Shown: positions 1,759 through 24,108 of the stretch, piece by piece | How positions within the stretch are numbered: position 1 is the first letter of the stretch | How the letters are laid out: every line of letters starts with the position of its first letter | Origin: a virus | Lineage: Duplodnaviria; Caudoviricetes | DNA: 36,857 nucleotides | Reading direction: 5' to 3' (one strand) | IMG/VR virus record: IMGVR_UViG_3300030330_005067 | Location: 1-36,857 of that record | The notes under the pieces: generated by a model | The model's database searches: none | What the model was told of the DNA's origin: nothing | Seen by the model: the letters and a program-made list of their open reading frames with translations, nothing else | Translations under genes and position numbers: made by a program

Positions 1759-2427
1759 TTAGCCTCCAAACACTTGATTGTAAAAGTCAGCGTTATTAGC
1801 TCTGAATTGAGTTAACGCCTCTGAATATGAAATGCTCTTTTCTTTAGATAGCTTCTTTACTTCAGCATCTAGAGCACGTTTATTAATTTCACGACGACTG
1901 GCACCATGACCAACCTCAGCGAGTGGTACAGTTGAACCGGTGCTACGCTCGTTAAACATCTGCCAAAATTCAGGTTGTAGCTCTCTGAGTTGCCAAGCTT
2001 TACCAGCTACAGTCTCCTCAGCCGGTGAGATTCGACCATCACGTAATAAGGCACCAACGGCCTCACGCTTTTCAATCTCGGCCTTTTCGGCTTCAATCGC
2101 TTCAATTCGTGCGCTCATCTTAGCGTTGTTCTCTCTGAGTGCGTTAATTTCAGATAGTAAAGTTGGTGATAGTTGCTCACTCATCTTGTAATCCTTCTTT
2201 TCAGCCATCTTTTCTTTATCGTCTTCAGACTCGGCCATCTTCTCTTTATCATCGTCTTCAGATTCGGCCATCTTCTCTTTATCATCCTCATCACGCTCTT
2301 TACGCATGGAGGCTTCAGAATCTTGCTTCATCTTCTTAATCTGGTCTTCAAGTTCTTTGACCATCTCATCTTTTGCGATGAGCATAGATCTAAGCTCATC
2401 GGCAGACATACTTTCAATGTTATCCAT
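1759..2427 (-). CDS. Putative internally initiated scaffold protein (222 aa, MDNIESM...)
   Basis: In-frame ATG at 2427 preceded by GAAAGG, right after the protease domain; mirrors the Mu I/Z arrangement. Confidence 0.5.
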   Translation of the reverse strand: MDNIESMSADELRSMLIAKDEMVKELEDQIKKMKQDSEASMRKERDEDDKEKMAESEDDDKEKMAESEDDKEKMAEKKDYKMSEQLSPTLLSEINALRENNAKMSARIEAIEAEKAEIEKREAVGALLRDGRISPAEETVAGKAWQLRELQPEFWQMFNERSTGSTVPLAEVGHGASRREINKRALDAEVKKLSKEKSISYSEALTQFRANNADFYNQVFGG

Positions 2428-3729
2428 CTCAAGCCTTTCGTTTAATATGACCCGGTCTATCTGGTCATGTGATTGTGCCGGTCTAGGCGTTAAAGTAACG
2501 GCTAAGAGTTGAGCATCACCAACTTTAGCACCGCCTAAACGGTCATAGACTTCACCGGCTAAGAACTCTGGAGAACTCCACAATACACCACCTGCATCTT
2601 TCACAACTTTTAAGCCGCGTTCGTTGTATGCTGGGATTGCATAAAGCCCATCCTCTTTTAGTTCTAAGTCGATGATTAAGCCTAAGGCGTTCCCTGACTC
2701 TGGTGGAGCTGGTGAGCCGCCTTGATAGGGAGAGGTTGCGTGTTGCCAGTCTATGACTACAGGGTCCTGGTCTTTACGCTCTTTAAACACTCTGACCATC
2801 TCAGCCAGCATAGACATATCAATTTCTTTGCCAACGTTCTCACCACTCATTCTAGATGATACTTGACCAAGACCTAAGGTTTTAAACGGTCGGCCCACTG
2901 TGAGATTCTCAGGTATATTATATGCAAATACTGAAGACTCTGAGAGTGCTCTCAAAGCTTTTGTTTTAGAGTCAGCTGTGTTCATTTGTCTTACTACTTT
3001 CTTTGCCCATGTAAAACCAGCATCACCGCCCCAACCATGCCAAGCCTGCCAACCTTTACCCTGGTCAGACCAGGTAGAGCCTTGCTTGTCGACTTCGTGC
3101 CTGGTGAAGTAATTGAGCATACGTCTAACTGTATCCGGGCTCATCGCTTTACCGTTGGCTAAGTCTCTGGCTCTGGCGATGCCTACACTGGTCATTCCAC
3201 GCTTGGATTGTGGTTTAGATGCTCTAACTTTTAAAGCTCGTTCACCGGCCTCTTGAGCACCTTTAGGTGGAGTAAAGTCGATATGAGAGTATTTATCAGG
3301 AACCGCTAAAAGCTCAGCTTTCTTATCTGATTCTCTGTGTTGTGGGTGTCCCTTAGGCAGTAGATCTAGATCACTAGTGTAAGCCTTCTTACGTTGGCCA
3401 GTAGCTACCAGTTTTAAGAATGTTCTCACCCTTGCTAACGCCCATTGATTTCTAGTCATGCCTGGTCGATGAGAAACACTAAAAGCACCGGCTCCACGTC
3501 TATAAACGGCTTTGAGTGCACCTAGATCAATACGACGTTTGGCCGCTTTGAACTTAGCATTATGCTTGTCTCTCATGTTCTCTAGAGCTTTAGTAGCTTG
3601 CTCACTGATAGAGATGCCACCACGCGCCCCACTAGCCGAGCCCTTAGGGTTCGCTTTACTGCCCTTGATCCGGTCCTTTTTTGGTGCTGGTGTTTGGGCT
3701 TGGGTGCGCTTCTTAATTGCTTTTACCAT
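1759..3729 (-). CDS. Mu gpI-like prohead protease/scaffold with ~270-aa N-terminal extension
   Basis: VIDWQH, SSPEF and LLAVTLTPRP motifs as in Mu-like protease I; coiled-coil acidic C-terminal scaffold; lies directly after the portal. Confidence 0.8.
   Translation of the reverse strand: MVKAIKKRTQAQTPAPKKDRIKGSKANPKGSASGARGGISISEQATKALENMRDKHNAKFKAAKRRIDLGALKAVYRRGAGAFSVSHRPGMTRNQWALARVRTFLKLVATGQRKKAYTSDLDLLPKGHPQHRESDKKAELLAVPDKYSHIDFTPPKGAQEAGERALKVRASKPQSKRGMTSVGIARARDLANGKAMSPDTVRRMLNYFTRHEVDKQGSTWSDQGKGWQAWHGWGGDAGFTWAKKVVRQMNTADSKTKALRALSESSVFAYNIPENLTVGRPFKTLGLGQVSSRMSGENVGKEIDMSMLAEMVRVFKERKDQDPVVIDWQHATSPYQGGSPAPPESGNALGLIIDLELKEDGLYAIPAYNERGLKVVKDAGGVLWSSPEFLAGEVYDRLGGAKVGDAQLLAVTLTPRPAQSHDQIDRVILNERLEMDNIESMSADELRSMLIAKDEMVKELEDQIKKMKQDSEASMRKERDEDDKEKMAESEDDDKEKMAESEDDKEKMAEKKDYKMSEQLSPTLLSEINALRENNAKMSARIEAIEAEKAEIEKREAVGALLRDGRISPAEETVAGKAWQLRELQPEFWQMFNERSTGSTVPLAEVGHGASRREINKRALDAEVKKLSKEKSISYSEALTQFRANNADFYNQVFGG
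2195..2290 (-). repeat. ~30-33 bp tandem repeat encoding DDDKEKMAESE x3
   Basis: Three copies of GCCATCTTYTCTTTATC in the scaffold linker. Confidence 0.85.
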
Positions 3730-5140
3730 GTCGTTTCCTCGCTATAAGTTGCTCAGCAAGTGCAGACACTCCACCTGATCCACCTTGACTAGATACCCTT
3801 AACATTGGTGAGCGTTGGGCATCCTCAGGTAGGTCACCAGCTCCTAGCTTAGCTCTGATAACTCTCTCTAGTTCATCATCAGGAGTGATAAGACCAGACT
3901 GAACTAGACCAGGTAGCATTTGAAGAGACTCAGCCAACTCATCAGTATCAAGGCCAGTATGAACTAATCTTGGCAGTTTACTTTGATCCACCGCCCCATA
4001 ATTCCAGCGAATCAAACGGCCTATAGTACCACCTCCACGCCTATCAGGTCCGCTTACCTGAGCCGCTACCAAGTCACATAGGTTAATGGCTGCACGTCTA
4101 AACACTGATAAGTGGATTTCACCAACTGATCTAGCTCCAGTTTCAGTATTACCTAAATCAGCAAACTGAGCTAAGAAGGCCGCCGCTATTTGTGAATCAC
4201 ATTTAGTGATGATATTGATGGGGCCATCTGCGTACAAGTTTGGCTGTGATGCATATGTATCAAACTTAACAGCCGCGTTTTCTACTAGATAGCTTTGCTC
4301 AGCACTAATAAAAGCTTGTGCTTGTGACTCTGCATCATCAATCATAGCGTCGATGTCACCATCACTTAAACCGATTGATTCAGCCGTTGAACGGTCTACA
4401 ACAACTTTAGGAGTAGGCACCGCCCAACGGTCTAAACCTACACACATCAAGTTACTAACTCTCTGCTTAGTACGCCACCACCACCACACTGGGCGCAACA
4501 TTCCAACACCCTCAAAGTTAGAGCCCGTCTTGTTAAGTGTGAGGAGTAGTAGTTTATTAGCTGGGATGGGTTCAGGAACTTTACCAGAACCAACCATGTT
4601 CTGTAGTACCCCATCTAAGTGTTGGTCATCCCTCGATAACCATCTTGAATGTGCTGAGGGTTCTCTATCTGCATAGTGGCTTAACCACACTCTAACCTTA
4701 CCAGTAGAGTCAGGGCCTACCTTGTAAATCTCTTCAGCGTAGCGATAACCAACCGGGACAAACTCAAATAGATAACTTAGTTGGTCCTCCCAACTCATTA
4801 CCATCTGGCCGCTGTTACCATCAAAACCAAAAGCCTCATTCGCGTACCTAGCTAACTCCTCGCTTACTATGTCACCCTCTACACCTGGTTCAAATCTCCA
4901 AGTGGCAGAGAGCAGAGTCTGTCTAAGCATATGCCAAGATCGTCTAACTATCGGATCAGTCCTAAGCATATCCTCAGCCTCTTGCACCCAGTTGAGGCCG
5001 GTCAGCTGTGGGTTGCTCTCTTTAGAAATCACTCCACCGTTTAATTGGGTTCCGCTTATGCCTTTAGTTCTGAATCGTGGCGATAGGGCTCTAATGTGTC
5101 TTGGAGCCTTACCATCATCATGGGGATTAGACATAGCCAA
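3713..5140 (-). CDS. Portal protein (DUF935/Mu gp29-like)
   Basis: 475 aa; GY...E.IY, PIPANK, FEGVGMLRP.WW.W..K and GARSVGEIH motifs; upstream of the protease. Confidence 0.85.
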   Translation of the reverse strand: MAMSNPHDDGKAPRHIRALSPRFRTKGISGTQLNGGVISKESNPQLTGLNWVQEAEDMLRTDPIVRRSWHMLRQTLLSATWRFEPGVEGDIVSEELARYANEAFGFDGNSGQMVMSWEDQLSYLFEFVPVGYRYAEEIYKVGPDSTGKVRVWLSHYADREPSAHSRWLSRDDQHLDGVLQNMVGSGKVPEPIPANKLLLLTLNKTGSNFEGVGMLRPVWWWWRTKQRVSNLMCVGLDRWAVPTPKVVVDRSTAESIGLSDGDIDAMIDDAESQAQAFISAEQSYLVENAAVKFDTYASQPNLYADGPINIITKCDSQIAAAFLAQFADLGNTETGARSVGEIHLSVFRRAAINLCDLVAAQVSGPDRRGGGTIGRLIRWNYGAVDQSKLPRLVHTGLDTDELAESLQMLPGLVQSGLITPDDELERVIRAKLGAGDLPEDAQRSPMLRVSSQGGSGGVSALAEQLIARKRHGKSN

Positions 5141-5171: not shown

Positions 5172-5200
5172 ATTATATTATTTTACTGAACAGTTGTCTA
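5172..5200 (-). promoter_or_regulatory. Sigma70-type promoter for the portal/head operon
   Basis: TAGACA-17 bp-TATAAT on the minus strand, about 30 bp upstream of the portal start. Confidence 0.65.
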
Positions 5201-5204
5201 GTAG

Positions 5205-5239
5205 TTGACCACTGCAGAATAAAAGCATACATTTATAAT
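5205..5239 (+). promoter_or_regulatory. Possible divergent plus-strand promoter
   Basis: TTGACC-17 bp-TACATT, with TATAAT at 5234-5239; no plus-strand ORF follows. Confidence 0.35.
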
Positions 5240-5376
5240 GTTCTTTCCTTGCTGGTATTGGGGTTAACGACTCACTAGAATAGATCAAAACTTTGGACGG
5301 TCTCTGACTGCTCTAGTGACTATTAGTAGTTATTAAGATAAGAGATGATGGTCCATCCCTTAATGACTACCTATGT

Positions 5377-5820
5377 TTAATCCTCTGGCTCTGGCTGTGT
5401 CGGTAGCCACTGATCAACCACCTCAGGCAACTTTACCTCGTCGTCATTGGCTGGGTGTTCAAAGCCATTGAGGACGCTAAGACGCTCGATAATAGCAAAC
5501 TGCAAAGCCGCTTGTTGTTCTCTCAATAGTTGCATCTGTATGTTTGCATCTCTGAGACGCGCTATAAGTGCAGCTCTATCAGACTCTTGAAATGCTAGTT
5601 TATCCTTAAGGTCCTCAACTTCAGATGGATCACGACCGCTGGCTATAGCAATCATTGAAGAGATTGAACCTGTTATCATACCGAGTATTCCCACGAGTAC
5701 ATCACGATTCTCATCTACTATACTAACTCTGGCTAAGAAGACAATCAACCCCATCACGAGCAACATAAAGAAGATTGAGAACCACCACCCACGTTTATTT
5801 TTTTCATGATCTTCATTCAT
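5377..5820 (-). CDS. Membrane protein, 2 predicted TM helices plus coiled coil
   Basis: WWFSIFFMLLVMGLIVFLA and VLVGILGMITGSISSMIAIA hydrophobic segments, then a heptad-rich helix; start overlaps the cyclase stop by 8 nt. Confidence 0.7.
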   Translation of the reverse strand: MNEDHEKNKRGWWFSIFFMLLVMGLIVFLARVSIVDENRDVLVGILGMITGSISSMIAIASGRDPSEVEDLKDKLAFQESDRAALIARLRDANIQMQLLREQQAALQFAIIERLSVLNGFEHPANDDEVKLPEVVDQWLPTQPEPED

Positions 5821-6577
5821 TCCACCACTCCTTAAGCCATTGTTTAATAAAAGGGTAAAGTAAACAGATGATATACCCTAAGCTCAACCAAAAGGATCGC
5901 CACAGTATCCACCATGCCCACTCTTTAAGTCTTCTATGTTTAGCTTTAGATTTAATCTTACCGGGTCCGCCTATCCTCTTAACCTTCTCATTACCCTCAG
6001 GAGGCTGTAGTGATTCGATGGTGACACCCACCGCATAAATGGTCTGAGGTTGTCTGACACCTTTAAACTGATAGAGACCAACACAAGCATATCTAGTACC
6101 CTTAGGTGTATGGGGATTAGCCCGGCCTTTAATCACTTGAAAAGCTTGTTTAGTTAGCAGCACTTGACCAGCTCTACACATCGACATAGTTCTAGCCGCT
6201 AAGTTCTTACTTAGTCCCTCTAGTTCAATCGGTTTGGCTCCTGAGAGCACTAGTAACTCATGCTGAGTTACTTCAATCACTTGGCCCCAATGGATACCGA
6301 TTCTAGCTTCTAAATGTGTTTTAGCTGGTATTGTCTTCTGATAGTTGAGAGCAAAGTTGAGAGCATCAATAGGACGTTCAAACGATAGAAGAAAACCATC
6401 GGACCTATCTATTTCTCGACCGTTAAACTTGTAGAGCATAGAACGGCTAAGCCTATCATGATATTGTAACCATTCAGCCGCTTTCATTGCACCCACTCGT
6501 CTTACAAAGTCGGTTGAGCCAATGAGGTCTAGTAATACAATGGCTAACAGTCTTTCTTGATAATGCTCTTGCTCCAC
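5813..6577 (-). CDS. Class III (adenylate/guanylate-type) nucleotide cyclase with C-terminal TM anchor
   Basis: LLDLIGST (D17), DRSDG (D60), ARIGIHWG, NLAAR (N125/R129), GQVLL and FKG motifs; C-terminal WAWWILWRSFWLSLGYIICLLYPF. Confidence 0.9.
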   Translation of the reverse strand: MEQEHYQERLLAIVLLDLIGSTDFVRRVGAMKAAEWLQYHDRLSRSMLYKFNGREIDRSDGFLLSFERPIDALNFALNYQKTIPAKTHLEARIGIHWGQVIEVTQHELLVLSGAKPIELEGLSKNLAARTMSMCRAGQVLLTKQAFQVIKGRANPHTPKGTRYACVGLYQFKGVRQPQTIYAVGVTIESLQPPEGNEKVKRIGGPGKIKSKAKHRRLKEWAWWILWRSFWLSLGYIICLLYPFIKQWLKEWWNE

Positions 6578-6582
6578 TGGTA

Positions 6583-7032
6583 TTACTCCCAGCTGATCAC
6601 CGTAATGTTATGCTCGATAAGGTAAGCACAGCCAGGCGAATCTCGATCATGCTTAGTAGTGTATACCTGAGTTATACCGGCGTGATGAATTAACTTAGCA
6701 CAATTTAGACATGGTGGCCTAGTCACAACCAACCACGCGCCCTTAGTGGCATGACCATACCTGGCCGCGTTACAGATGGCGTTAGCTTCAGCATGATGAC
6801 AGCCAACTTCTACCCTAGTACCACTAACAATTTTTTGCTCATCTCGATGGCAGACAGTCCCACCACATAAATCACCTCCACCTCTAGGTGCCCCATTGTA
6901 TCCATCTGCTAAAGTCACCCATGTATCTGGCTGAAATAGCATAGCCCCAACCTTAGCGCGTGGGCATGGTGAAGCCTGAGCTAACTGTTGACTCATTCTG
7001 ATCTTAGTCCAGATGTGTTTATGTTTGCTCAT
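6583..7032 (-). CDS. dCMP deaminase
   Basis: SPC...VGA, GYNG, HAEANAI and PPCLNC zinc motifs. Confidence 0.9.
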   Translation of the reverse strand: MSKHKHIWTKIRMSQQLAQASPCPRAKVGAMLFQPDTWVTLADGYNGAPRGGGDLCGGTVCHRDEQKIVSGTRVEVGCHHAEANAICNAARYGHATKGAWLVVTRPPCLNCAKLIHHAGITQVYTTKHDRDSPGCAYLIEHNITVISWE

Positions 7033-7685
7033 AGTAGTGAACCTAAGCTAACCGGGAAACGTTCAAGCAATAACTCTTTAATAGCTATAGCGGCTAATCT
7101 GGTCTCTAGTTGAGCATGATCATCACATCTAAGCCTTAAGAACTTTGACCAATTCAAGAGTGAGCCGGTCATCCAAAAGGATGTATAGAGATTAACTGGT
7201 AAGACTGTCCTAGCCGTTTCACGTGAAACACCACGATCTAGTAAGTTGAAATATACTGACTCGGTGAGCTTGCTGATACTGTCGATGATGTCTCTGGCTT
7301 CATCTGGTTGATGTACCTCTTCATCAGATGAGCACTGTAAATTCAACTGAGCTTGTTTATTAATTACGATGGGTGAGTAGAACTGAATACGCTCTGAAGT
7401 ATACCGCCTGCTCACTTCATTGTAACTAAACGTCCTATGACGCTGAATCTGTGAGCGAACAAATAGAGGCACAGTTAGAAGAAATGTGGCTGTGATGTGC
7501 TCGAATGGTGAAGTGTGTTGATGATTAGCTAAGAACTTAATTAACTTCTCATCACGCTCATTAAGCTCATCTGAGTGAGACAACTTAGCAAAGCTCACCC
7601 TTGCACTATGAGCCGGTGTAGCGTCATTACCCATAGTTGCTACCAGCTCCACACCACCAATGTCATCGTCATAAATGTATTCCAT
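7029..7685 (-). CDS. thyX: FAD-dependent thymidylate synthase
   Basis: HTSPFEH, RHRTFSYNEVSRRY (RHRx7SxR), RETAR.VLP and HAQLE.R motifs. Confidence 0.95.
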   Translation of the reverse strand: MEYIYDDDIGGVELVATMGNDATPAHSARVSFAKLSHSDELNERDEKLIKFLANHQHTSPFEHITATFLLTVPLFVRSQIQRHRTFSYNEVSRRYTSERIQFYSPIVINKQAQLNLQCSSDEEVHQPDEARDIIDSISKLTESVYFNLLDRGVSRETARTVLPVNLYTSFWMTGSLLNWSKFLRLRCDDHAQLETRLAAIAIKELLLERFPVSLGSLL

Positions 7686-9106
7686 CAGAACCTCCTTTTC
7701 TTAGATCCACCTACATTAACTTTCCTAGTCCTAGTGATGCCTCTAGATTGATAGCGCCTCTGATCAACTATGGCGTCATCGTCCCACCTCCACATGATAC
7801 AGTCATATCTAAGTGCGTCGAGTGGGTCCTCTCTGCCGTCTTTCTTGGGCTTCTCTTGTCGCGGCTCCCAACTGTAAGTAAGCAAAGCTTTCCTGATTGA
7901 GTTATTAGTTGAACGCTCGCCAGCGTCCCATACCTCACGAGTTATTAAGTATTGACCTCGACTAAAGGCTCTCTTTAAACGCTGCACACCATTAAGAATA
8001 TCAGTTCTAATTGGATCAGTGTTAGACCTTAGAGGCATACCTAGACCCTTAGGCGGTGGTAGTCTCATCGCTCTAAAAGCACTAGCACCGGTCTGATCAT
8101 TGCGAGCTTTACCGGCCTTATCAGCACAGCCAGAATCTAACCAAATTCTAGGACCCGGTGCCTTACCCTTATTTTTTCGAGGCCAAGCAATGGAGAGAAT
8201 GAGCTGTGCTAGTTGCTCGATGGTGACTTCAGCCGGGTTAATCTCTGCTGCAATTATATCAGCCTTTAGCAGTGGATCATGGCAGATGATGAGTACCGAT
8301 GGTTTTCTAAAGCCCCAATCAATAGCAATCCTTGAACTCATAGTTGGTTGATACTGCCAACCATCGAGGACCATCTTGGCCGGGTCAAACTCATTATAGA
8401 CTAGGCCGGATGGTGGTCTAGGCTGATTCATTACCATTGCTAGACGCTCAGCTTCTGGTAACAGTTTGGTAGCTTCAAACCACTCTTGACTCAGGTTAGC
8501 TTCATTAACATAGCTGGTATAGAGTAGAGGCTTACACTCACTTCTCTCAGCTAATCGACACCACCAGGCATCTGCCACCGGTAGACCCACCAATATCATG
8601 ATGGGAGTAGGTCCACTCCTTAGGCGTCCTAAAGCTTTGTGGGCTACCTCTTCAGTAAGTGTCTGACATTCATCGATGAGGCATACACCACTAGTTACAT
8701 TTAGACCTTCTAGTGGGTTGTGGGTAGCGTCTCTGGTACCTGGTCGATAGTAAGACCTAGTCCAAACAGTAGAGCCGGTCTCAGGGTCTGACCATTGTTT
8801 GAGGGTGTGATTGTAAGTCCAACCCAGTGGAGCTAACCACTTTTCGATTTCAGGCATCAATACAGAGTTATAGCGTGGTGTTGTGTCAGTAACTAGTAAG
8901 GAGCTGGTACCTGGTCGAATGTGGCTGATCGTAAGCAGAGACAAGACCAAAGCAGATGTTTTACCAGACCCCCATCCACATCTGGCCGCTATGATCTTAT
9001 TCTCTTTTCTAATCTGGGTGATAATGTCTAGTTGCAATTCATTAAGTTTTAATGAGTCCATCCTCACCAACTTTCCAGCGTTCAGAGTGGGAGAAACCAG
9101 CATCAT
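7685..9106 (-). CDS. terL: Terminase large subunit (true start probably MDSLKL at about 9061)
   Basis: Walker A GWGSGKT, Walker B CLIDECQ, nuclease motifs IDWGF and DPLDALRY. Confidence 0.9.
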   Translation of the reverse strand: MMLVSPTLNAGKLVRMDSLKLNELQLDIITQIRKENKIIAARCGWGSGKTSALVLSLLTISHIRPGTSSLLVTDTTPRYNSVLMPEIEKWLAPLGWTYNHTLKQWSDPETGSTVWTRSYYRPGTRDATHNPLEGLNVTSGVCLIDECQTLTEEVAHKALGRLRSGPTPIMILVGLPVADAWWCRLAERSECKPLLYTSYVNEANLSQEWFEATKLLPEAERLAMVMNQPRPPSGLVYNEFDPAKMVLDGWQYQPTMSSRIAIDWGFRKPSVLIICHDPLLKADIIAAEINPAEVTIEQLAQLILSIAWPRKNKGKAPGPRIWLDSGCADKAGKARNDQTGASAFRAMRLPPPKGLGMPLRSNTDPIRTDILNGVQRLKRAFSRGQYLITREVWDAGERSTNNSIRKALLTYSWEPRQEKPKKDGREDPLDALRYDCIMWRWDDDAIVDQRRYQSRGITRTRKVNVGGSKKRRF

Positions 9107-9305
9107 TAATTTTTAAGATGAGCACCAAAGCACCTACCTCAATAGACAGTGTACGCTCATAACCTCGTAGCCAACCATCACTAATATCAGTCTCAGCTAT
9201 GATTGAGTATTCCCCATTCATGATCAGATAGCTCTCTTGATAATGACTAGCAAAATGCCACATCTTCTTAAGCTTAATCTTTGTCAGAGTCTTCGGTGCT
9301 TTCAC
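9042..9305 (-). CDS. Hypothetical protein between terS and terL
   Basis: 87-aa ORF overlapping both neighbours; fills the gap. Confidence 0.55.
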   Translation of the reverse strand: MKAPKTLTKIKLKKMWHFASHYQESYLIMNGEYSIIAETDISDGWLRGYERTLSIEVGALVLILKINDAGFSHSERWKVGEDGLIKT

Positions 9306-9693
9306 TTAAGCTCTCCTCTCTAAGCTCAGCTTTTAAACGCTCGTCAGTCTGCTCTAACATAGTGAGCACCATACTTTGCCCGGCGTTGGCTTTGCTCTGT
9401 GTGATTTCAATCTCTCGTTTGGGTCCCCATCTGTCTGGGTGTCGACGTTCTAACAGCCAAGCATACGCTCGCCAGTCTCCACGCTCGTCACCTAAAGCCT
9501 TGACCCTTGCAACGTTGACAGCCTCAGCAAAGTCTATGGCCTCTTGCACTTCAGCCTTCCACTCCTCACACTCTTCTAGCCACCTGTAGTAAGTGGGTCT
9601 GCTTATTAAACTCAAACTACAAGCCGCCTGAACACTCATTCCGGTTCTAAGGTTGTCTAGTAGTCGTTCTCTTGTCTCTCTGCTTTTAGTCAT
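9274..9693 (-). CDS. terS: Terminase small subunit
   Basis: N-terminal HTH (G.SVQAAC....SRPTYYRW) and DWRAYAWLLERRHPDRW motif; upstream of terL. Confidence 0.8.
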   Translation of the reverse strand: MTKSRETRERLLDNLRTGMSVQAACSLSLISRPTYYRWLEECEEWKAEVQEAIDFAEAVNVARVKALGDERGDWRAYAWLLERRHPDRWGPKREIEITQSKANAGQSMVLTMLEQTDERLKAELREESLSESTEDSDKD

Positions 9694-10257: not shown

Positions 10258-10405
10258 GCCTAGCCTCTTGCAACACTTTCTCAATGTGGCTCATGAGTTC
10301 TTCAGAGTGTTTAGCTATCTTAGCATCATGATCTTTAGCAGAGAGTACGATTAACTTTTTTAAGCGCTCTAGTATTTGGATGGTGTCGTCTTTTCGCTCG
10401 CTCAT
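10238..10405 (-). CDS. Small hypothetical helical protein, 55 aa (not in ORF track)
   Basis: MSERKDDTIQILERLKKLIVLSAKDHDAKIAKHSEELMSHIEKVLQEARHGQRRD; ATG overlaps the upstream stop (TAATG). Confidence 0.65.
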   Translation of the reverse strand: MSERKDDTIQILERLKKLIVLSAKDHDAKIAKHSEELMSHIEKVLQEARHGQRRD

Positions 10406-11979
10406 TATTTACGCCCTAAGTGATTAATATCTATTTGCCTAAGAACACAAGCTCGCGCCAGGCTCATGGCTGAATCCTTTTCTACTTTACTTAGATGGGG
10501 ATGCCCTGAAAGCATTAGAAGAAAGCTAGACAAGTCAACTTCAACCCCGTTTATGGAGATGTAGCTAGGTTTATCAAATAGTAGAGTTTGTCCTGATTTA
10601 TCTGTGACAACATCTGGCTTAACTTCTAGCTTAGGCTCTGGCTTAGCTTTTGGCTTAGCTTTTGGCTTAGGCTCTGGCTTAACTTCTGGCTTAGGCTCTG
10701 GCTTAGCTTTTGGCTTAGCTTTTGGCTTAGCTATGGAATGAATAGGGAAATGCTTACAAGCTGTGCTGTAGGGGGTAACAGGTGCGATTGTCCTTGAAAT
10801 AGCCCTAGCTAAAAATATATATTTTTTAAGATTGTTTTCTTTTAAACACTCCAAAAAATAATGTAAATAAGATGGCCCCGCATAACCATAAGCAAACGCA
10901 GAATAAGCAACTGTGTGACTAAAACGAGAGCTCAAAAGCTTTCTGAGGTTGAGTGCCTCTACTAACTTTGAGAATAAAGTAAATGTTATCTCTTTTGGTA
11001 GTGAGTTAGATAAGTTTAAATTATCTAAATCAACTTCTAATGCGTACTCTTTGCAGATTCTAAAACCATTATCAGAAATATAAAGCACCTTGCTGTTTTT
11101 TACCATAGGCCACAATAAATTATAAAGGAGAACATAGCGTTTTTTGTTATCAAGCTGAAGTTTATCTCTTATCTTTTTTTCTGAACTCAAGAGGCCCATT
11201 AAGCTCCAAGCCCCACCACGCGATGAAATCTCAGAATCAGCCAGTGTTTCTATTATGTCTTTGGCTTTATATAAACCAAGAAGATCAGCGCTTAACTTAG
11301 TTATTCTAAAATCTTTTCTAATATACTTCTCATATGGCTTTAATGAGTCAGAATCATCTAGCTTAGGCTCTGGCTTAGCTTCTGGCTTAGGTAGTTGAGG
11401 TAGTTCTCTTTTAGCTTTAACTAGCGAGGTGATAAAGCTACACCCTCTAGTCAAGAACTCTTTTATATCTAGCCTATGATATTCACCCTGTTTATCATAT
11501 TTATTAAAGTGATGAAGTATCACGCCATCATATTCAGATAAATAATCCACGTATGTGAATCTTTCCTTTTCAGTTTTTGGCGGGTTTAGTCTGTGTGCTT
11601 GATATTCTTTGGCACACTCGTGTTGATGCTCAACATCATTGCTGTATACTCCTACAAGGAGAAATAGTTCACCATCATGAGTATTCTTCCCAGCCAAAAG
11701 CCCTTTATGATCTGTCAAAGAACCCTCGACCAAATATCTAGATTCCTCAAACGGTGAGGATGAATATATATCCAGATTAAGAAAATTTCTATCCATCTGC
11801 CTAGTTGATTTAACTTGAATAAAAATATTCTTTTTAATAGCAATATCAACGTGAGGAAAAGTTGACTTAATTGGTCTAGAACCTTCTGTTCTAGTGTGTA
11901 CAAGCAATTCTCTAACAGCGTCCTCAAAAGCCATCCCACATTCGGCGGCTAAACTTTTTTTATTAAGTCGTGCGTTCAA
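10405..11979 (-). CDS. Putative PD-(D/E)xK-fold nuclease with Pro/Lys-rich linkers
   Basis: G.AFE helix followed by VD(x8)QVKS; TTG start with AAGGAG RBS; visibly AT-richer than the structural genes. Confidence 0.55.
   Translation of the reverse strand: MNARLNKKSLAAECGMAFEDAVRELLVHTRTEGSRPIKSTFPHVDIAIKKNIFIQVKSTRQMDRNFLNLDIYSSSPFEESRYLVEGSLTDHKGLLAGKNTHDGELFLLVGVYSNDVEHQHECAKEYQAHRLNPPKTEKERFTYVDYLSEYDGVILHHFNKYDKQGEYHRLDIKEFLTRGCSFITSLVKAKRELPQLPKPEAKPEPKLDDSDSLKPYEKYIRKDFRITKLSADLLGLYKAKDIIETLADSEISSRGGAWSLMGLLSSEKKIRDKLQLDNKKRYVLLYNLLWPMVKNSKVLYISDNGFRICKEYALEVDLDNLNLSNSLPKEITFTLFSKLVEALNLRKLLSSRFSHTVAYSAFAYGYAGPSYLHYFLECLKENNLKKYIFLARAISRTIAPVTPYSTACKHFPIHSIAKPKAKPKAKPEPKPEVKPEPKPKAKPKAKPEPKLEVKPDVVTDKSGQTLLFDKPSYISINGVEVDLSSFLLMLSGHPHLSKVEKDSAMSLARACVLRQIDINHLGRK
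10614..10732 (-). repeat. 12-bp-unit tandem repeat (KPKA/KPEP) with a ~60-bp higher-order duplication
   Basis: Repeated GGCTTAGCTTTT / GGCTTAGGCTCT units. Confidence 0.9.
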
Positions 11980-16190: not shown

Positions 16191-17321
16191 ATGAACGCTA
16201 TTTACAAACCAGTACCTAAATCAATTTGGACCCCGTCCGATGTACAAGAGGCCATGAATATGGCTCAAGTGCTCGAACCAGCCAACCCACAAAACTTACT
16301 ACTTATTCACGCTGCACATGGCCATCACTTCAATGGTGATATGGGGCTTTGCATGAGTCAAGGCTACTGTCTAAAAGGTAAGCCCACCCTTAGCGCTGAT
16401 GCAATGGCCGGTATTTGTAGACGTTCTGGCCTAATGCGATATATGCAAATCACTGAATGGGATGAAACTAAATGTACAATGATCATGGCACGCAATGATG
16501 AGCCGGCTGATATTGTGCATACATTCACTTTTACCATCCAGATGGCTAAAAAGCAAGGGTTAACTCGTAACCGCAACTGGGATCAGATGCCTAAGCAGAT
16601 GTTAAGAGCTCGATGCCTTACAATGGCTCTGAGAGCAACTTTCCCGGATGCAGTTAGTGGCATTTACTCACCCGATGAGATTGCTGATAACACCCAGATG
16701 AACGACCATGAACGGGCCATGTTATCAGCTCATAGTCTTGGTGAGGAGTTGCACACCTCACAGCCACCTAGATCACAGCCACCAGCTGCACAGCCTCACC
16801 CAACCCAACACCAGGCACAGCAACAATCACAGCCTCCAATGATGAAGCCAGAACCAAATCGCTTACATGACTTCTCAACTATGGAGGGATGGCAAGCCGC
16901 TCTAGAATCCACTGGGATTGACTTGGAAGAAATTGTCGACTGTGTACAGCGATGTTCTCAAACACCCGTCAAGCTTATGTCACCACAGCATAGAGAATTT
17001 TTCTTTTATCGCTATGTGATGAGCCGGGCCACACGAACAATACCCCATGATCCTACCTGGTGGAGCGCAAAGCATAACGAGATTCAGAAGATGAGAGCAG
17101 AGGTTGAAAAGGACTATCCACTGTTAAAAGGCAACCAGCCGAGAACCTATGGTCATTTGTTCCAGCATGGTGCTTGGCACGAAACACTAAGAGTAGCTCA
17201 TCAGCTCGATAGAGAAGGCCAGAAGAAAGCACTAGGCATACTTGGGACTATGCACCCGGACGAGTGGACCGCCTATGATTTAGTGTGTTCATTTAAAGAT
17301 CAAGATAGCAGTAGTACTTAA
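16191..17321 (+). CDS. RecT/Redbeta-like single-strand annealing protein with C-terminal extension
   Basis: KGKPTLSA, AKKQGL, NW..MPKQMLRAR and FPDAVSGIYSPDE motifs; Q/P-rich linker. Confidence 0.75.
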   Translation: MNAIYKPVPKSIWTPSDVQEAMNMAQVLEPANPQNLLLIHAAHGHHFNGDMGLCMSQGYCLKGKPTLSADAMAGICRRSGLMRYMQITEWDETKCTMIMARNDEPADIVHTFTFTIQMAKKQGLTRNRNWDQMPKQMLRARCLTMALRATFPDAVSGIYSPDEIADNTQMNDHERAMLSAHSLGEELHTSQPPRSQPPAAQPHPTQHQAQQQSQPPMMKPEPNRLHDFSTMEGWQAALESTGIDLEEIVDCVQRCSQTPVKLMSPQHREFFFYRYVMSRATRTIPHDPTWWSAKHNEIQKMRAEVEKDYPLLKGNQPRTYGHLFQHGAWHETLRVAHQLDREGQKKALGILGTMHPDEWTAYDLVCSFKDQDSSST

Positions 17322-17726
17322 AGCCGCTGCACCTACTCCCACGCTCACCCACTGCCACACTTTAGTGTTTTCTTGGCTAGTTGATAGCTCTATCTGAGTA
17401 TCAGTAAGCTGAGATTGTAGAGTTTTAATCAGAGCCTCTTGATTTACTCTGGTGGCCTCTGCATCTGCTAAAGCTTCTCTTTGTGCTTCTATTGAACCGC
17501 GTTCACACTCTCCAACTGCTGAGTTGATGGCTGATCTACAGAAATCAGGAGAACCTTCAATCTTTTGTTTAGCACGTATAAAGTCGCCCACGCTCATCAT
17601 CATCATACGCTCGTTAGGTCGCTCTGTAAGCTCGATGGGAAAGCCAACCACCGGTCTACCACTACCCATATCAATCGAGTAAGAATCAGATGACCAGGGT
17701 ATTAAAAATGGTAGTAACCAAATCAT
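17289..17726 (-). CDS. Membrane protein, spanin-like (coiled coil plus C-terminal TM)
   Basis: Short hydrophobic N-terminus, coiled coil, WVSVGVGAAALSTTAILIF; last gene of the late operon. Confidence 0.45.
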   Translation of the reverse strand: MIWLLPFLIPWSSDSYSIDMGSGRPVVGFPIELTERPNERMMMMSVGDFIRAKQKIEGSPDFCRSAINSAVGECERGSIEAQREALADAEATRVNQEALIKTLQSQLTDTQIELSTSQENTKVWQWVSVGVGAAALSTTAILIFK

Positions 17727-18070
17727 TTCACTTTAACCTCAACGGCTTCACCACAAGCAATCTCTGAGCAGAGTTTTAAGCTCTCTTCAATTTTTTGAGT
17801 GCAAATACTTTCACATGATAGAGCTTTGTTAGCACACTGTTGAGCACACTCAGCAACATTACCAGCTCTAGACTTGATGAGCTTTTCTTTTAGCTGTGCT
17901 ACCTCAATTTTAACAGGGTCACACTCTTTACTAGCTTTCAGTTGCCCGTCTTCAAAGCCTTGCGACACACCGAAGACATAAGCAGACATAAGCAGAGAGA
18001 AACCCATGATTAAGCTAACTACTACCATCACTGACTTATCACTGATTTTATCAAAGTTTAGTGCAATCAT
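17723..18070 (-). CDS. i-spanin-like membrane protein
   Basis: N-terminal TM followed by a Cys-rich helical region; ATGA-coupled to the next gene. Confidence 0.45.
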   Translation of the reverse strand: MIALNFDKISDKSVMVVVSLIMGFSLLMSAYVFGVSQGFEDGQLKASKECDPVKIEVAQLKEKLIKSRAGNVAECAQQCANKALSCESICTQKIEESLKLCSEIACGEAVEVKVK

Positions 18071-22806: not shown

Positions 22807-23190
22807 TCAACTATTAAAGCCGGCTATGATTGTGAACTTGTCACCACCAGCCGCCTTCTTATATGCGATTGAAGTTACTGAAGTGCCGTTGACCAACGCT
22901 TGAACATCAACAGAGTATGAGCCCATGATGGGGATAACTCCATCTGTGTTACCGGTTCCATCACCAGCACCACCGGCCGCTCTGAGCTTACCAAAGCTGA
23001 CTGTGTTGGTGGAGCTTGAAACAAACTCGACATAAGCAAACTTAAGACCGGCTGATAGTTGTGTACCAGCCTGAGCATCATAAAAGTCAGTAGAGCTTAA
23101 ACTGTGCCAGTCTGTATCATTGACAGCTGAGGCATCATAGGCCGCTGCATAGCCACCGGCATGAATTGGATATTGAACGCCTAATCTCAT
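22807..23190 (-). CDS. Hypothetical virion protein
   Basis: 127 aa, G/A/S-rich, directly upstream of the fibre. Confidence 0.55.
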   Translation of the reverse strand: MRLGVQYPIHAGGYAAAYDASAVNDTDWHSLSSTDFYDAQAGTQLSAGLKFAYVEFVSSSTNTVSFGKLRAAGGAGDGTGNTDGVIPIMGSYSVDVQALVNGTSVTSIAYKKAAGGDKFTIIAGFNS

Positions 23191-23417
23191 GATGGCTTCT
23201 CCAGTCTTGAATCAGGTTGTTGTGGTTGAACTGGTGAGTAGCGTTTCGCTACTACATTGGCACCAGCATAAATAAAAAATAGGGTGTCGATTAATCCTAA
23301 CACATGAGTCTCAGCTTTTCCGCTGATTGCTAGGATGAAGGTTACTAAGAGACAAGCATAGAACGCGCTAGCTTTACGGCCTCCTAGTTTCTCTGATTGA
23401 GTTGTTTGTTCACTCAT
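23187..23417 (-). CDS. Putative holin
   Basis: 76 aa, two hydrophobic helices after GGRK; overlaps the endolysin end. Confidence 0.65.
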   Translation of the reverse strand: MSEQTTQSEKLGGRKASAFYACLLVTFILAISGKAETHVLGLIDTLFFIYAGANVVAKRYSPVQPQQPDSRLEKPS

Positions 23418-24108
23418 CTAAATCACTCGCTAGAATACGATAGACCCATGCTATTTGTGTCATTGGTCGCTCATGTTGAATTACACCTTCACCGCGTTCA
23501 CCGTTGCCTAGTATGCCCCATGCATTTCCTTCCAAAGTCTTGAAAGTGCCGTTGCAAGGTGGCTCTAAACAGATTGTGATGTGATCACCTGTCTTAGCTC
23601 TGTTACTGTTGAAAATGACAACAATGTCACCAGGTAGCATTTCCTCAGGTTCTACTTTGCGTGATGTATTAACCCAGTTGTTATACAGCCTATAACATGA
23701 TGGTAGTATCTTTTGACGTGCTGTAAAGTTGAGATAAGGACCCCAAAAATAAGCCGCAAAAGCTCCACACCATGCGAATTGTTTATTTTTTGTGTACTGC
23801 TTTTCCCATGTCCAGCCAAGACAATCACGACTTCTAATGTAATAGTCGATGCGTTCCCAGTTTTTACCAGGTGGTTCAGCTACAACTTGAGACCATTCTG
23901 CTAATGCACGCCTTATAAGTTCTGGTACTTGAGGTAAAACAGATGGTGAGACATTGGTTATAAGTCTCTCTTGCTGATAATCCCGGTCTAGTTCAGCTTG
24001 ACCAATGGCCCTATCGAGTCTTCTTATCTCATGGGCTTGTGCTTCATTAACTGCTTTGAGTTCAGCTAGCTGGTTTTCTAGCTGTGCTTTTGTAAGCTTG
24101 CTCATCAA
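23410..24108 (-). CDS. CHAP/NlpC-P60-type endolysin with N-terminal coiled coil
   Basis: AWCGAFA (Cys), PGDIVVIF, DHITI (His) and TLEGN motifs. Confidence 0.75.
   Translation of the reverse strand: MMSKLTKAQLENQLAELKAVNEAQAHEIRRLDRAIGQAELDRDYQQERLITNVSPSVLPQVPELIRRALAEWSQVVAEPPGKNWERIDYYIRSRDCLGWTWEKQYTKNKQFAWCGAFAAYFWGPYLNFTARQKILPSCYRLYNNWVNTSRKVEPEEMLPGDIVVIFNSNRAKTGDHITICLEPPCNGTFKTLEGNAWGILGNGERGEGVIQHERPMTQIAWVYRILASDLDE

Follow-up and report, generated by a model that had tools for sequence, protein, structure and literature searches.

A class III nucleotidyl cyclase and a two-helix membrane protein encoded by a core gene pair of ~36-kb marine phages

We analysed a stretch of DNA, referred to as the window, that makes up a complete virus record (36,857 bases, CheckV 100%, 44% GC). 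All of its sampled words occurred in two sequencing runs, both marine metagenomes, from which it may derive; no RNA run was listed as containing it. It encodes a protein of 254 aa that, on its modelled fold and its catalytic residues, is a class III nucleotidyl cyclase, for which cNMP formation is predicted. The stop of this gene overlaps the start of a gene encoding a 147-aa membrane protein, which we have designated the partner. Both are core genes, kept as a pair, in a widespread group of ~36-kb marine phages. As far as was searched this is a known kind of enzyme in a gene pair with no known counterpart, and the pair is undescribed in the literature covered, a search that had most subscription journals outside its scope. 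The explanation that we favour, tentatively and at a little under even odds, is that the pair makes cGMP late in infection in a membrane complex, tying a cyclic-nucleotide signal to the control of lysis. Known roles of cyclic mononucleotides are signalling in bacteria and raising the alarm against phages; in this case the cyclase belongs to the phage itself, as a core gene.

The gene pair, its setting and its conservation

The genes of the minus strand were ordered terS, terL, thyX, dCMP deaminase, cyclase, partner, portal, a 656-aa protein, cement and major capsid. The features referred to below were as follows.

5813–6577, minus strand: class III nucleotidyl cyclase, 254 aa (TIGR04510 profile, AlphaFold2 model, residue alignment)
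5377–5820, minus strand: partner, 147 aa, two membrane helices and a coiled coil (hydrophobicity, predicted structure)
6583–7685, minus strand: dCMP deaminase and ThyX, variable cargo between terminase and cyclase, outside the pair
7685–9693, minus strand: terminase large and small subunits, upstream core context
3713–5140, minus strand: Mu-type portal, downstream core context
5172–5200, minus strand: sigma70-like site, TAGACA-17-TATAAT, located between the partner and portal genes (promoter scan)
23187–24108, minus strand: separate lysis-like cassette, a CHAP-type endolysin (23410–24108) and then a 76-aa two-helix holin-like gene (23187–23417)

The cyclase ORF had a GTG start with GGGAG upstream, and its stop and the partner start shared 8 nt (ATGAATGA). 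The span of the two genes (5377–6577) and the stop overlap given in the initial annotation, made from the sequence alone, were right. Both frames were under strong purifying selection with a dN/dS of ~0.03; five comparisons with close relatives, in which two pairs were near copies, gave 0.023–0.032 for the cyclase and 0.024–0.036 for the partner, and thyX and dCMP deaminase had similar values in the same comparisons.

A gene-neighbourhood survey revealed the partner to be kept next to cyclase homologues. It was found in 76 of 80 cyclase loci, the other four ending 11–172 nt after the match, and the cyclase was found in 79 of 80 partner loci, the remaining locus starting 128 nt before it. Among metagenome contigs the pair was present in 70/80, with nine of the misses having ≤215 nt of room; the intervening genes of L530 were also those of L009, which has its partner gene 1,439 nt downstream. 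The two genes overlapped or were ≤60 nt apart in 112 of 116 distinct pairs, three being split by inserts and one reversed. The partner was found in none of the 66 genome loci of cyclase relatives. A portal-based search was used to avoid selecting on the pair itself, and 72 of 80 portal-selected loci had both genes, two the partner only and six neither, all eight of these being short of upstream DNA. Both genes were present in each of the 67 portal-selected loci that spanned terL to portal, and thyX, dCMP deaminase and methylase-like genes varied within the same interval. The loci were not independent, as 78 four-gene loci reduced to 39 at <90% cyclase identity. The initial annotation had called such a module unexpected in a 37-kb phage, a statement that has to be reworded: the pair is core in widespread ~36-kb marine phages (67/67).

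Partial rank correlation of pairwise identities among the 39 representatives was 0.72 between cyclase and partner, −0.004 between cyclase and terL and −0.125 between partner and portal; this does not show binding, because overlapping genes are co-inherited by linkage alone. Mean identity was 0.73 for the partner and 0.67 for the cyclase. The pair was also found in phages of ~60% GC, where a divergent CHAP endolysin adjoins it, and on contigs of 100–312 kb, and 35 distinct pair loci had no relative of the window's terminase or portal in the available DNA. Annotated phage genomes gave one weak, unannotated cyclase match (27%), portal matches of ~25% and no match for the partner; since only weak matches were obtained there, no cultured relative is proposed. 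A portal match of 41% was found on one 7.3-kb contig in one of 301 genomes of the phylum of G006; a search of this set for the partner, run without a positive control, found none.

The sigma70-like site before the portal gene was conserved in the window and in its close relatives L001, L002 and L003, and a scan of the window returned 14 such sites against 11.6 ± 3.3 expected by chance. Of 87 distinct loci only 15 had a TAGAC-type site before the portal gene, and a stricter pattern placed none before terS (0/60), so no late-promoter class is claimed. Approximately 180 nt of extra non-coding DNA (5215–5373) lay between partner and portal in the window and L001 and was absent from L002 and L003. 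No integrase was found among the annotated ORFs of the window. Two other ORFs were of note: the 656-aa protein between the portal and capsid genes (1759–3729) had DUF5824, a phrog_2859 region and acidic repeats, and a 524-aa ORF of no clear family (10405–11979) had Pro-Lys-Glu repeats near its C-terminus.

The cyclase and its cellular relatives

Re-reading of the sequence placed D17, D57, R58, S59, D60, E118, N125 and R129 where the initial annotation had them, and the class III catalytic set (D17, D60, N125, R129) was intact. As it had also reported, the GD motif reads SD, with a loop one residue shorter than those of Rv1900c and Ma1120 in the alignment. The base pocket residues were D57/R58/E118; D57 aligned with the Lys slot of Ma1120, which is Glu in the Ma1120 KDA-to-EGY mutant. 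The AlphaFold2 model of the cyclase had a pLDDT of 91.7 and its structural matches were class III cyclases (Foldseek E 1e-13). The best was 1ybt (Rv1900c), with Z 23.8 and an rmsd of 1.8 Å over 166 residues; Rv1900c/LipJ and Ma1120 (PDB 1ybt, 5d0e) had TM-scores of 0.87–0.90 by target. These proteins differ from the phage enzyme in that they share 20–25% identity with it, are adenylate cyclases, have Asn or Lys where it has D57, and have no membrane partner. The catalytic domain (~6–200) is followed by a basic linker and by the C-terminal membrane helix anticipated from the sequence (~221–247), with almost nothing beyond. This helix was only moderately hydrophobic in the window member (KD19 1.39); KD19 was ≥1.6 in 99 of 118 relatives, and the median net charge before the helix was +7.

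The initial annotation had noted a resemblance, in need of confirmation, to the NCBIfam family TIGR04510 ('putative peptide modification system cyclase'). This kinship was borne out, as the profile matched residues 8–201 with 164.8 bits (E 3e-48). The match covered profile positions 3–204 of 814 and was below the whole-protein cut-off (164.8 vs 400 bits). The N-terminal cyclase domain of the subtype and then one membrane helix were present; the C-terminal TPR region was absent, the protein ending at 254 aa. Cellular members have the order cyclase, basic linker, membrane helix and long TPR region. In 118 relatives ≤52 residues followed the helix, and the median was 31 in phage and 638 in cellular proteins. 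On its sequence, then, the enzyme is not a full TIGR04510 protein; sequence and model identify it as the front part of a TIGR04510 receptor cyclase, consisting of the cyclase and the helix and truncated ahead of the periplasmic TPR domain. Two cellular members (L099:1246–2448 and L148:7893–9191) had the cyclase, the membrane helix and, in place of TPR, a PEGA domain.

A protein search returned 621 related clusters among 1,236 candidates of similar length, and the best 120 of the 621 were 61–97% identical to the window cyclase; these 120 listed relatives were counted as phage-type, classed without their genomic context. The longer relatives (40) were named TIGR04510 or TolB-like/class 3 cyclase, and the 66 genome loci encoded mostly long proteins of 800–1,400 aa. 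The cyclase cluster in the ESM Atlas had 1,722 members, 99% of them viral. Alignment showed D17 and D60 in 247/247 rows and, among 212 distinct phage-type domains, D57 and R129 in all and N125 in 210. D57 was common to 97 of 98 cellular domains, and D57, E118, K124 and R129 were common to both groups. The transition-state Asn (210/212 phage-type domains) was in 0 of the 98 distinct cellular domains, which had Pro (78), Ala (14), His (3), Ser (2) or Gln (1) in this slot, and in 0/20 further domains from the phylum of G006, one of which repeats L099. Two giant-phage-type cyclases (L035, L039) had Ala at the Asn slot and kept the partner. A divergent lineage (L051, L054, L082) had 40–42% identity in the cyclase and 63–64% in the partner. 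Three census rows, probably these three, had Ser at R58 and Ser or Asn at E118, a changed pocket that hints at an altered nucleotide specificity.

Two trees of subsampled rows (38 and 40) were made with near copies removed. The phage domains formed one clade in both (100/100). Its sister group was open in the first; in the second the clade, on a long branch, grouped with membrane-anchored TIGR04510 domains of Lysobacterales (gammaproteobacterial) type (96/92). Of the 301 genomes from the G006 phylum (Myxococcota by tree label), 20 had the cyclase subtype, and their domains did not group with the phage clade.

The suggestion of a possibly non-cAMP output was strengthened by the Asp (D57) at the adenine-specifying Lys slot, which the family of XC_0250 also has. 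A fragment of this protein from Xanthomonas campestris, XC_0250(1–220), was reported to make cGMP and not cAMP (PMC3770947). Twenty-five TIGR04510 loci from the order of G010 were checked against the six residues quoted for XC_0250 (D41, D71, L73, A150, L157 and A161), and six of the 25 reproduced all of them. One, L401, had all six and Met1 in the numbering of the paper, and the gene upstream of it encodes cNMP-binding and GGDEF domains, as XC_0249 does; XC_0250 is therefore a TIGR04510 protein. L401 had 42% identity to the window cyclase over 187 aa. Like TIGR04510/XC_0250 proteins, the phage enzyme has the ID(R/K)(S/T)DG loop, the GAKPxExEG motif, the D57/E118/K124 pocket, the basic linker and a single membrane helix. 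It differs from them in having no periplasmic TPR region (it is ~600 aa shorter), in its Asn at the transition-state slot and in having a dedicated two-helix partner and no cNMP-GGDEF neighbour. PucC, a cGMP cyclase of another clade, likewise carries an acidic residue in its first base slot (10.64898/2026.08.12.744502).

Homology and pocket residues thus make cGMP the likely product of the phage enzyme. The cGMP assignment, here as for the whole TIGR04510 family, rests on one paper (PMC3770947), and the phage enzymes differ from XC_0250 at the Asn slot. A search for a retraction notice for that paper found none. In the L401-type alignment the first metal Asp was D28 and the transition-state slots were P141 and R145, which differ from the residues assigned in the available text of the paper, and its structure-function account therefore needs care (PMC3770947). 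Many TIGR04510 genes in L397–L421 were behind a GGDEF gene (cNMP-GGDEF in L401). With these neighbours a role in cGMP signalling fits TIGR04510 at least as well as the name 'peptide modification'.

The partner protein, its family and the lysis genes

The two membrane segments and coiled coil first noted in the partner were confirmed as hydrophobic segments at 16–34 and 41–59 and a predicted helix at 65–117. The second membrane helix had a small-residue face, G47-x3-G51-x3-S55. The model was all-helical, a membrane hairpin and a coiled coil (pTM 0.35), and a fold search returned generic coiled coils only, the best at Z 6.9 and none at 8 or more. No Pfam or PHROGs family matched the protein, PHROG 502 included, and its look-alikes in the ESM Atlas were unnamed viral clusters.

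A profile search found 126 representatives, many of 110–140 aa. These short proteins are true homologues of the partner (hhalign 99.5%, E 4e-23) and mostly match phrog_9990, of unknown function. The C-terminal tail V-x-L-x3-V-x2-W was present in 20 of 22 cyclase-linked members and in none of 30 short members. The contexts of the short relatives were surveyed with 8 of the 31 diverse rows of a broad alignment, so the survey covers one branch of the family. No cyclase was beside them in 80 loci of this branch; an M15 peptidase or amidase was ≤1.2 kb away in 32/80, neither cluster was within 1.2 kb in 48/80, and an annotated holin (phrog_3427) adjoined them in 11/80. A weak holin/anti-holin PHROG match (E 0.0036) was obtained for one of 30 relatives (P0180) and none for the window protein. 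The small family DUF5872, also unexplained, recurred beside the short relatives. Five complete small phages each had one member of the family, the cyclase-linked form.

In the window the partner lies ~17 kb from the CHAP endolysin, which has an N-terminal coiled coil and for which a search returned no named host. A CHAP-type endolysin followed by a small two-helix gene was found in the window and in all five complete relatives. The 76-aa product was named holin-like by size, topology and position only, there being no family match, including to PHROG. With a holin-like profile built from two of these loci, a CHAP endolysin was nearby in 8 and a holin-like gene in 8 of the 35 distinct pair loci outside terL–portal, and 19/35 had neither in the available DNA. 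The partner is a small predicted inner-membrane protein, as a holin would be, and is not beside the endolysin. It is probably not the holin of this phage, because a separate CHAP endolysin and holin-like gene are ~17 kb away. The contexts of its short relatives, its cyclase-only tail and this separate cassette make it look, from sequence and gene order, like an accessory protein of lysis cassettes to which a tail and a cyclase were added. Elsewhere in the window (17289–18070), two overlapping genes with one N-terminal and one C-terminal membrane helix, and no family match, could be spanin-like.

Proposed role, known systems and alternative readings

The initial annotation had noted that a class III cyclase with a membrane effector is the architecture of Pycsar anti-phage systems. 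Membership of Pycsar did not hold up. PADLOC at E≤1 gave no match for the cyclase or the partner (2023 library, which predates Pucsar), PycC structures matched the cyclase model below ordinary cyclases (Z 15.6–17.1, 12–18% identity, ranked 19th–22nd; 1ybt Z 23.8) and the partner, with its two hydrophobic segments, differs from the three-helix pJV1-spdB3 effectors. OptS of Panoptes (9mnr) aligned to the model with Z 10.3 over 106 residues, compared with 23.8 for a class III cyclase. The pair falls outside Pycsar, Pucsar and Panoptes as these are set out in the available text of the reports, PucC being compared by description (PMC11224242, PMC12657218). The likeness to Pycsar and Pucsar is a class III cyclase adjoining a membrane protein, and to Pucsar also a cGMP product, predicted for the phage enzyme, and an acid at the first base-recognition slot (10.64898/2026.08.12.744502). 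The differences are another cyclase lineage, a phage cyclase that is itself membrane-anchored and a two-helix partner unrelated to their effectors, which are three-helix pJV1-spdB3 or CNBD-TIR proteins (10.64898/2026.08.12.744502); those systems are also bacterial defence loci, whereas the pair here is a core phage gene set. The synthase of Panoptes is a minimal CRISPR polymerase, whereas the phage enzyme has the class III cyclase fold.

The curli (T8SS) modules of pelagiphages carry an annotated adenylate cyclase, so a class III-type cyclase has been annotated in marine phages (PMC9599517). In the available part of that article the cyclase is an optional member of a CsgG/CsgF/FecR module, and none of those genes flanks the pair. 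The holin–antiholin systems of lysis inhibition, T4 T/RI and ICP1 TeaA/ArrA, are, like the partner, small conserved membrane proteins and tune lysis timing; no cyclase part is described for them in the text available, and no sequence match was found (PMC7182436).

In the explanation that we favour, the enzyme is, as sequence, tree and model show, a sensor-less, membrane-anchored TIGR04510-type cyclase with the full Asp/Asp/Asn/Arg set. Class III chemistry would have it act as a homodimer carrying two active sites, and by homology its product would be cGMP. The partner, which probably binds it in the inner membrane, may stand in for the missing sensor by packing against the helix of the cyclase, which it would gate via the coiled coil and the added tail. 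The output would delay or trigger lysis via the partner or a host cNMP-binding protein, the weakest step of the scheme. As no cNMP-binding domain was found in the four phage genomes searched, the signal would act on the partner through an unrecognised site or on a host protein. Expression late in infection is suggested by gene order only. Three roles had been offered in the initial annotation, superinfection exclusion, lysis timing and manipulation of host signals. Lysis control has the most genomic support, and superinfection exclusion fits poorly because the pair is fixed, slowly evolving and inside the packaging gene block.

The signal may instead reprogramme the host, with cGMP feeding a CRP-like or cNMP-GGDEF regulator of the cell and changing motility, surface or metabolism, the partner being an anchor or activator only and lysis having no part. 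Cellular relatives sit behind cNMP-GGDEF genes, as XC_0250 feeds XC_0249, no receptor was recognised in the phages (0/4), the lost periplasmic sensor and the Asn are as for an unregulated signal source, and the pelagiphage curli module offers a phage-borne adenylate cyclase (PMC9599517). We nonetheless consider this reading unlikely, as it leaves unexplained both the origin of the partner in a lysis-cassette family and its conservation (0.73 vs 0.67 for the enzyme). Host-takeover genes are also usually early and outside the packaging block, in which this pair lies. A guard of Pycsar or Panoptes type, in which the partner would be a membrane toxin, opened or held shut by binding of the cyclic nucleotide, and would block competing phages, is less probable again. 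The layout of a cyclase gene and a membrane protein gene is that of such a guard, the cGMP-making PucC with its membrane effectors exists (10.64898/2026.08.12.744502), Panoptes shows that a constant signal can keep a membrane effector inactive (PMC12657218), and the small-residue face on helix 2 of the modelled partner suggests oligomers. Set against these are the PADLOC result and the rank of the PycC structures (19th–22nd), a partner model that is all helix with no known ligand domain, and the lack of an integrase among the annotated ORFs of the window. The pair is, moreover, fixed and slow-evolving, and immune cyclases are reported with long branches (10.64898/2026.08.12.744502).

There is a slim chance that the domain binds GTP, hardly turns it over and relays the nucleotide state to the partner purely through its conformation. 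The shortened SD loop and atypical base pocket, the lack of a recognised receptor in the phages and the retention of the partner by L035 and L039, with Ala at the Asn slot, would suit such a sensor; all four catalytic residues are kept, however, the Asn missing from cellular relatives is present in the phage clade, and the same loop occurs in the family of XC_0250, which was reported as active (PMC3770947). That the partner is an ordinary holin beside an unrelated metabolic gene is very improbable, although short relatives occur in lysis cassettes and P0180 had its weak holin/anti-holin match (E 0.0036). Pairing is near-absolute across different phage types, one reversed order included, a separate holin-like gene is beside the endolysin in 5/5 relatives, and some short relatives themselves adjoin an annotated holin (phrog_3427, 11/80 loci). 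The position of the pair between terL and portal in 67/67 loci could point to an aid to head assembly, the partner tethering portal or procapsid assembly to the membrane. To this we give hardly any credence: the 35 distinct pair loci have no relative of the window's terminase or portal in the available DNA, partner identity tracks the cyclase and not the portal, and the partner has no PHROG 502 match.

If the pair makes cGMP and acts via the partner, as we favour, these phages would be running a second-messenger circuit of their own and feeding a new input into lysis timing, which is a key trait for viral turnover in the ocean. A broader account, more doubtful than the favoured explanation itself, is that phages took a bacterial cGMP receptor cyclase, dropped its sensor and wired it to a lysis-cassette protein, so that a cyclic mononucleotide reading host GTP or membrane state would time lysis in 36-kb and 300-kb phages. 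Upstream of the cyclase, 12 of 116 distinct pair loci, the window not among them, had a Cys- and Asp-rich ORF of 56 aa (L208:1458–1628).
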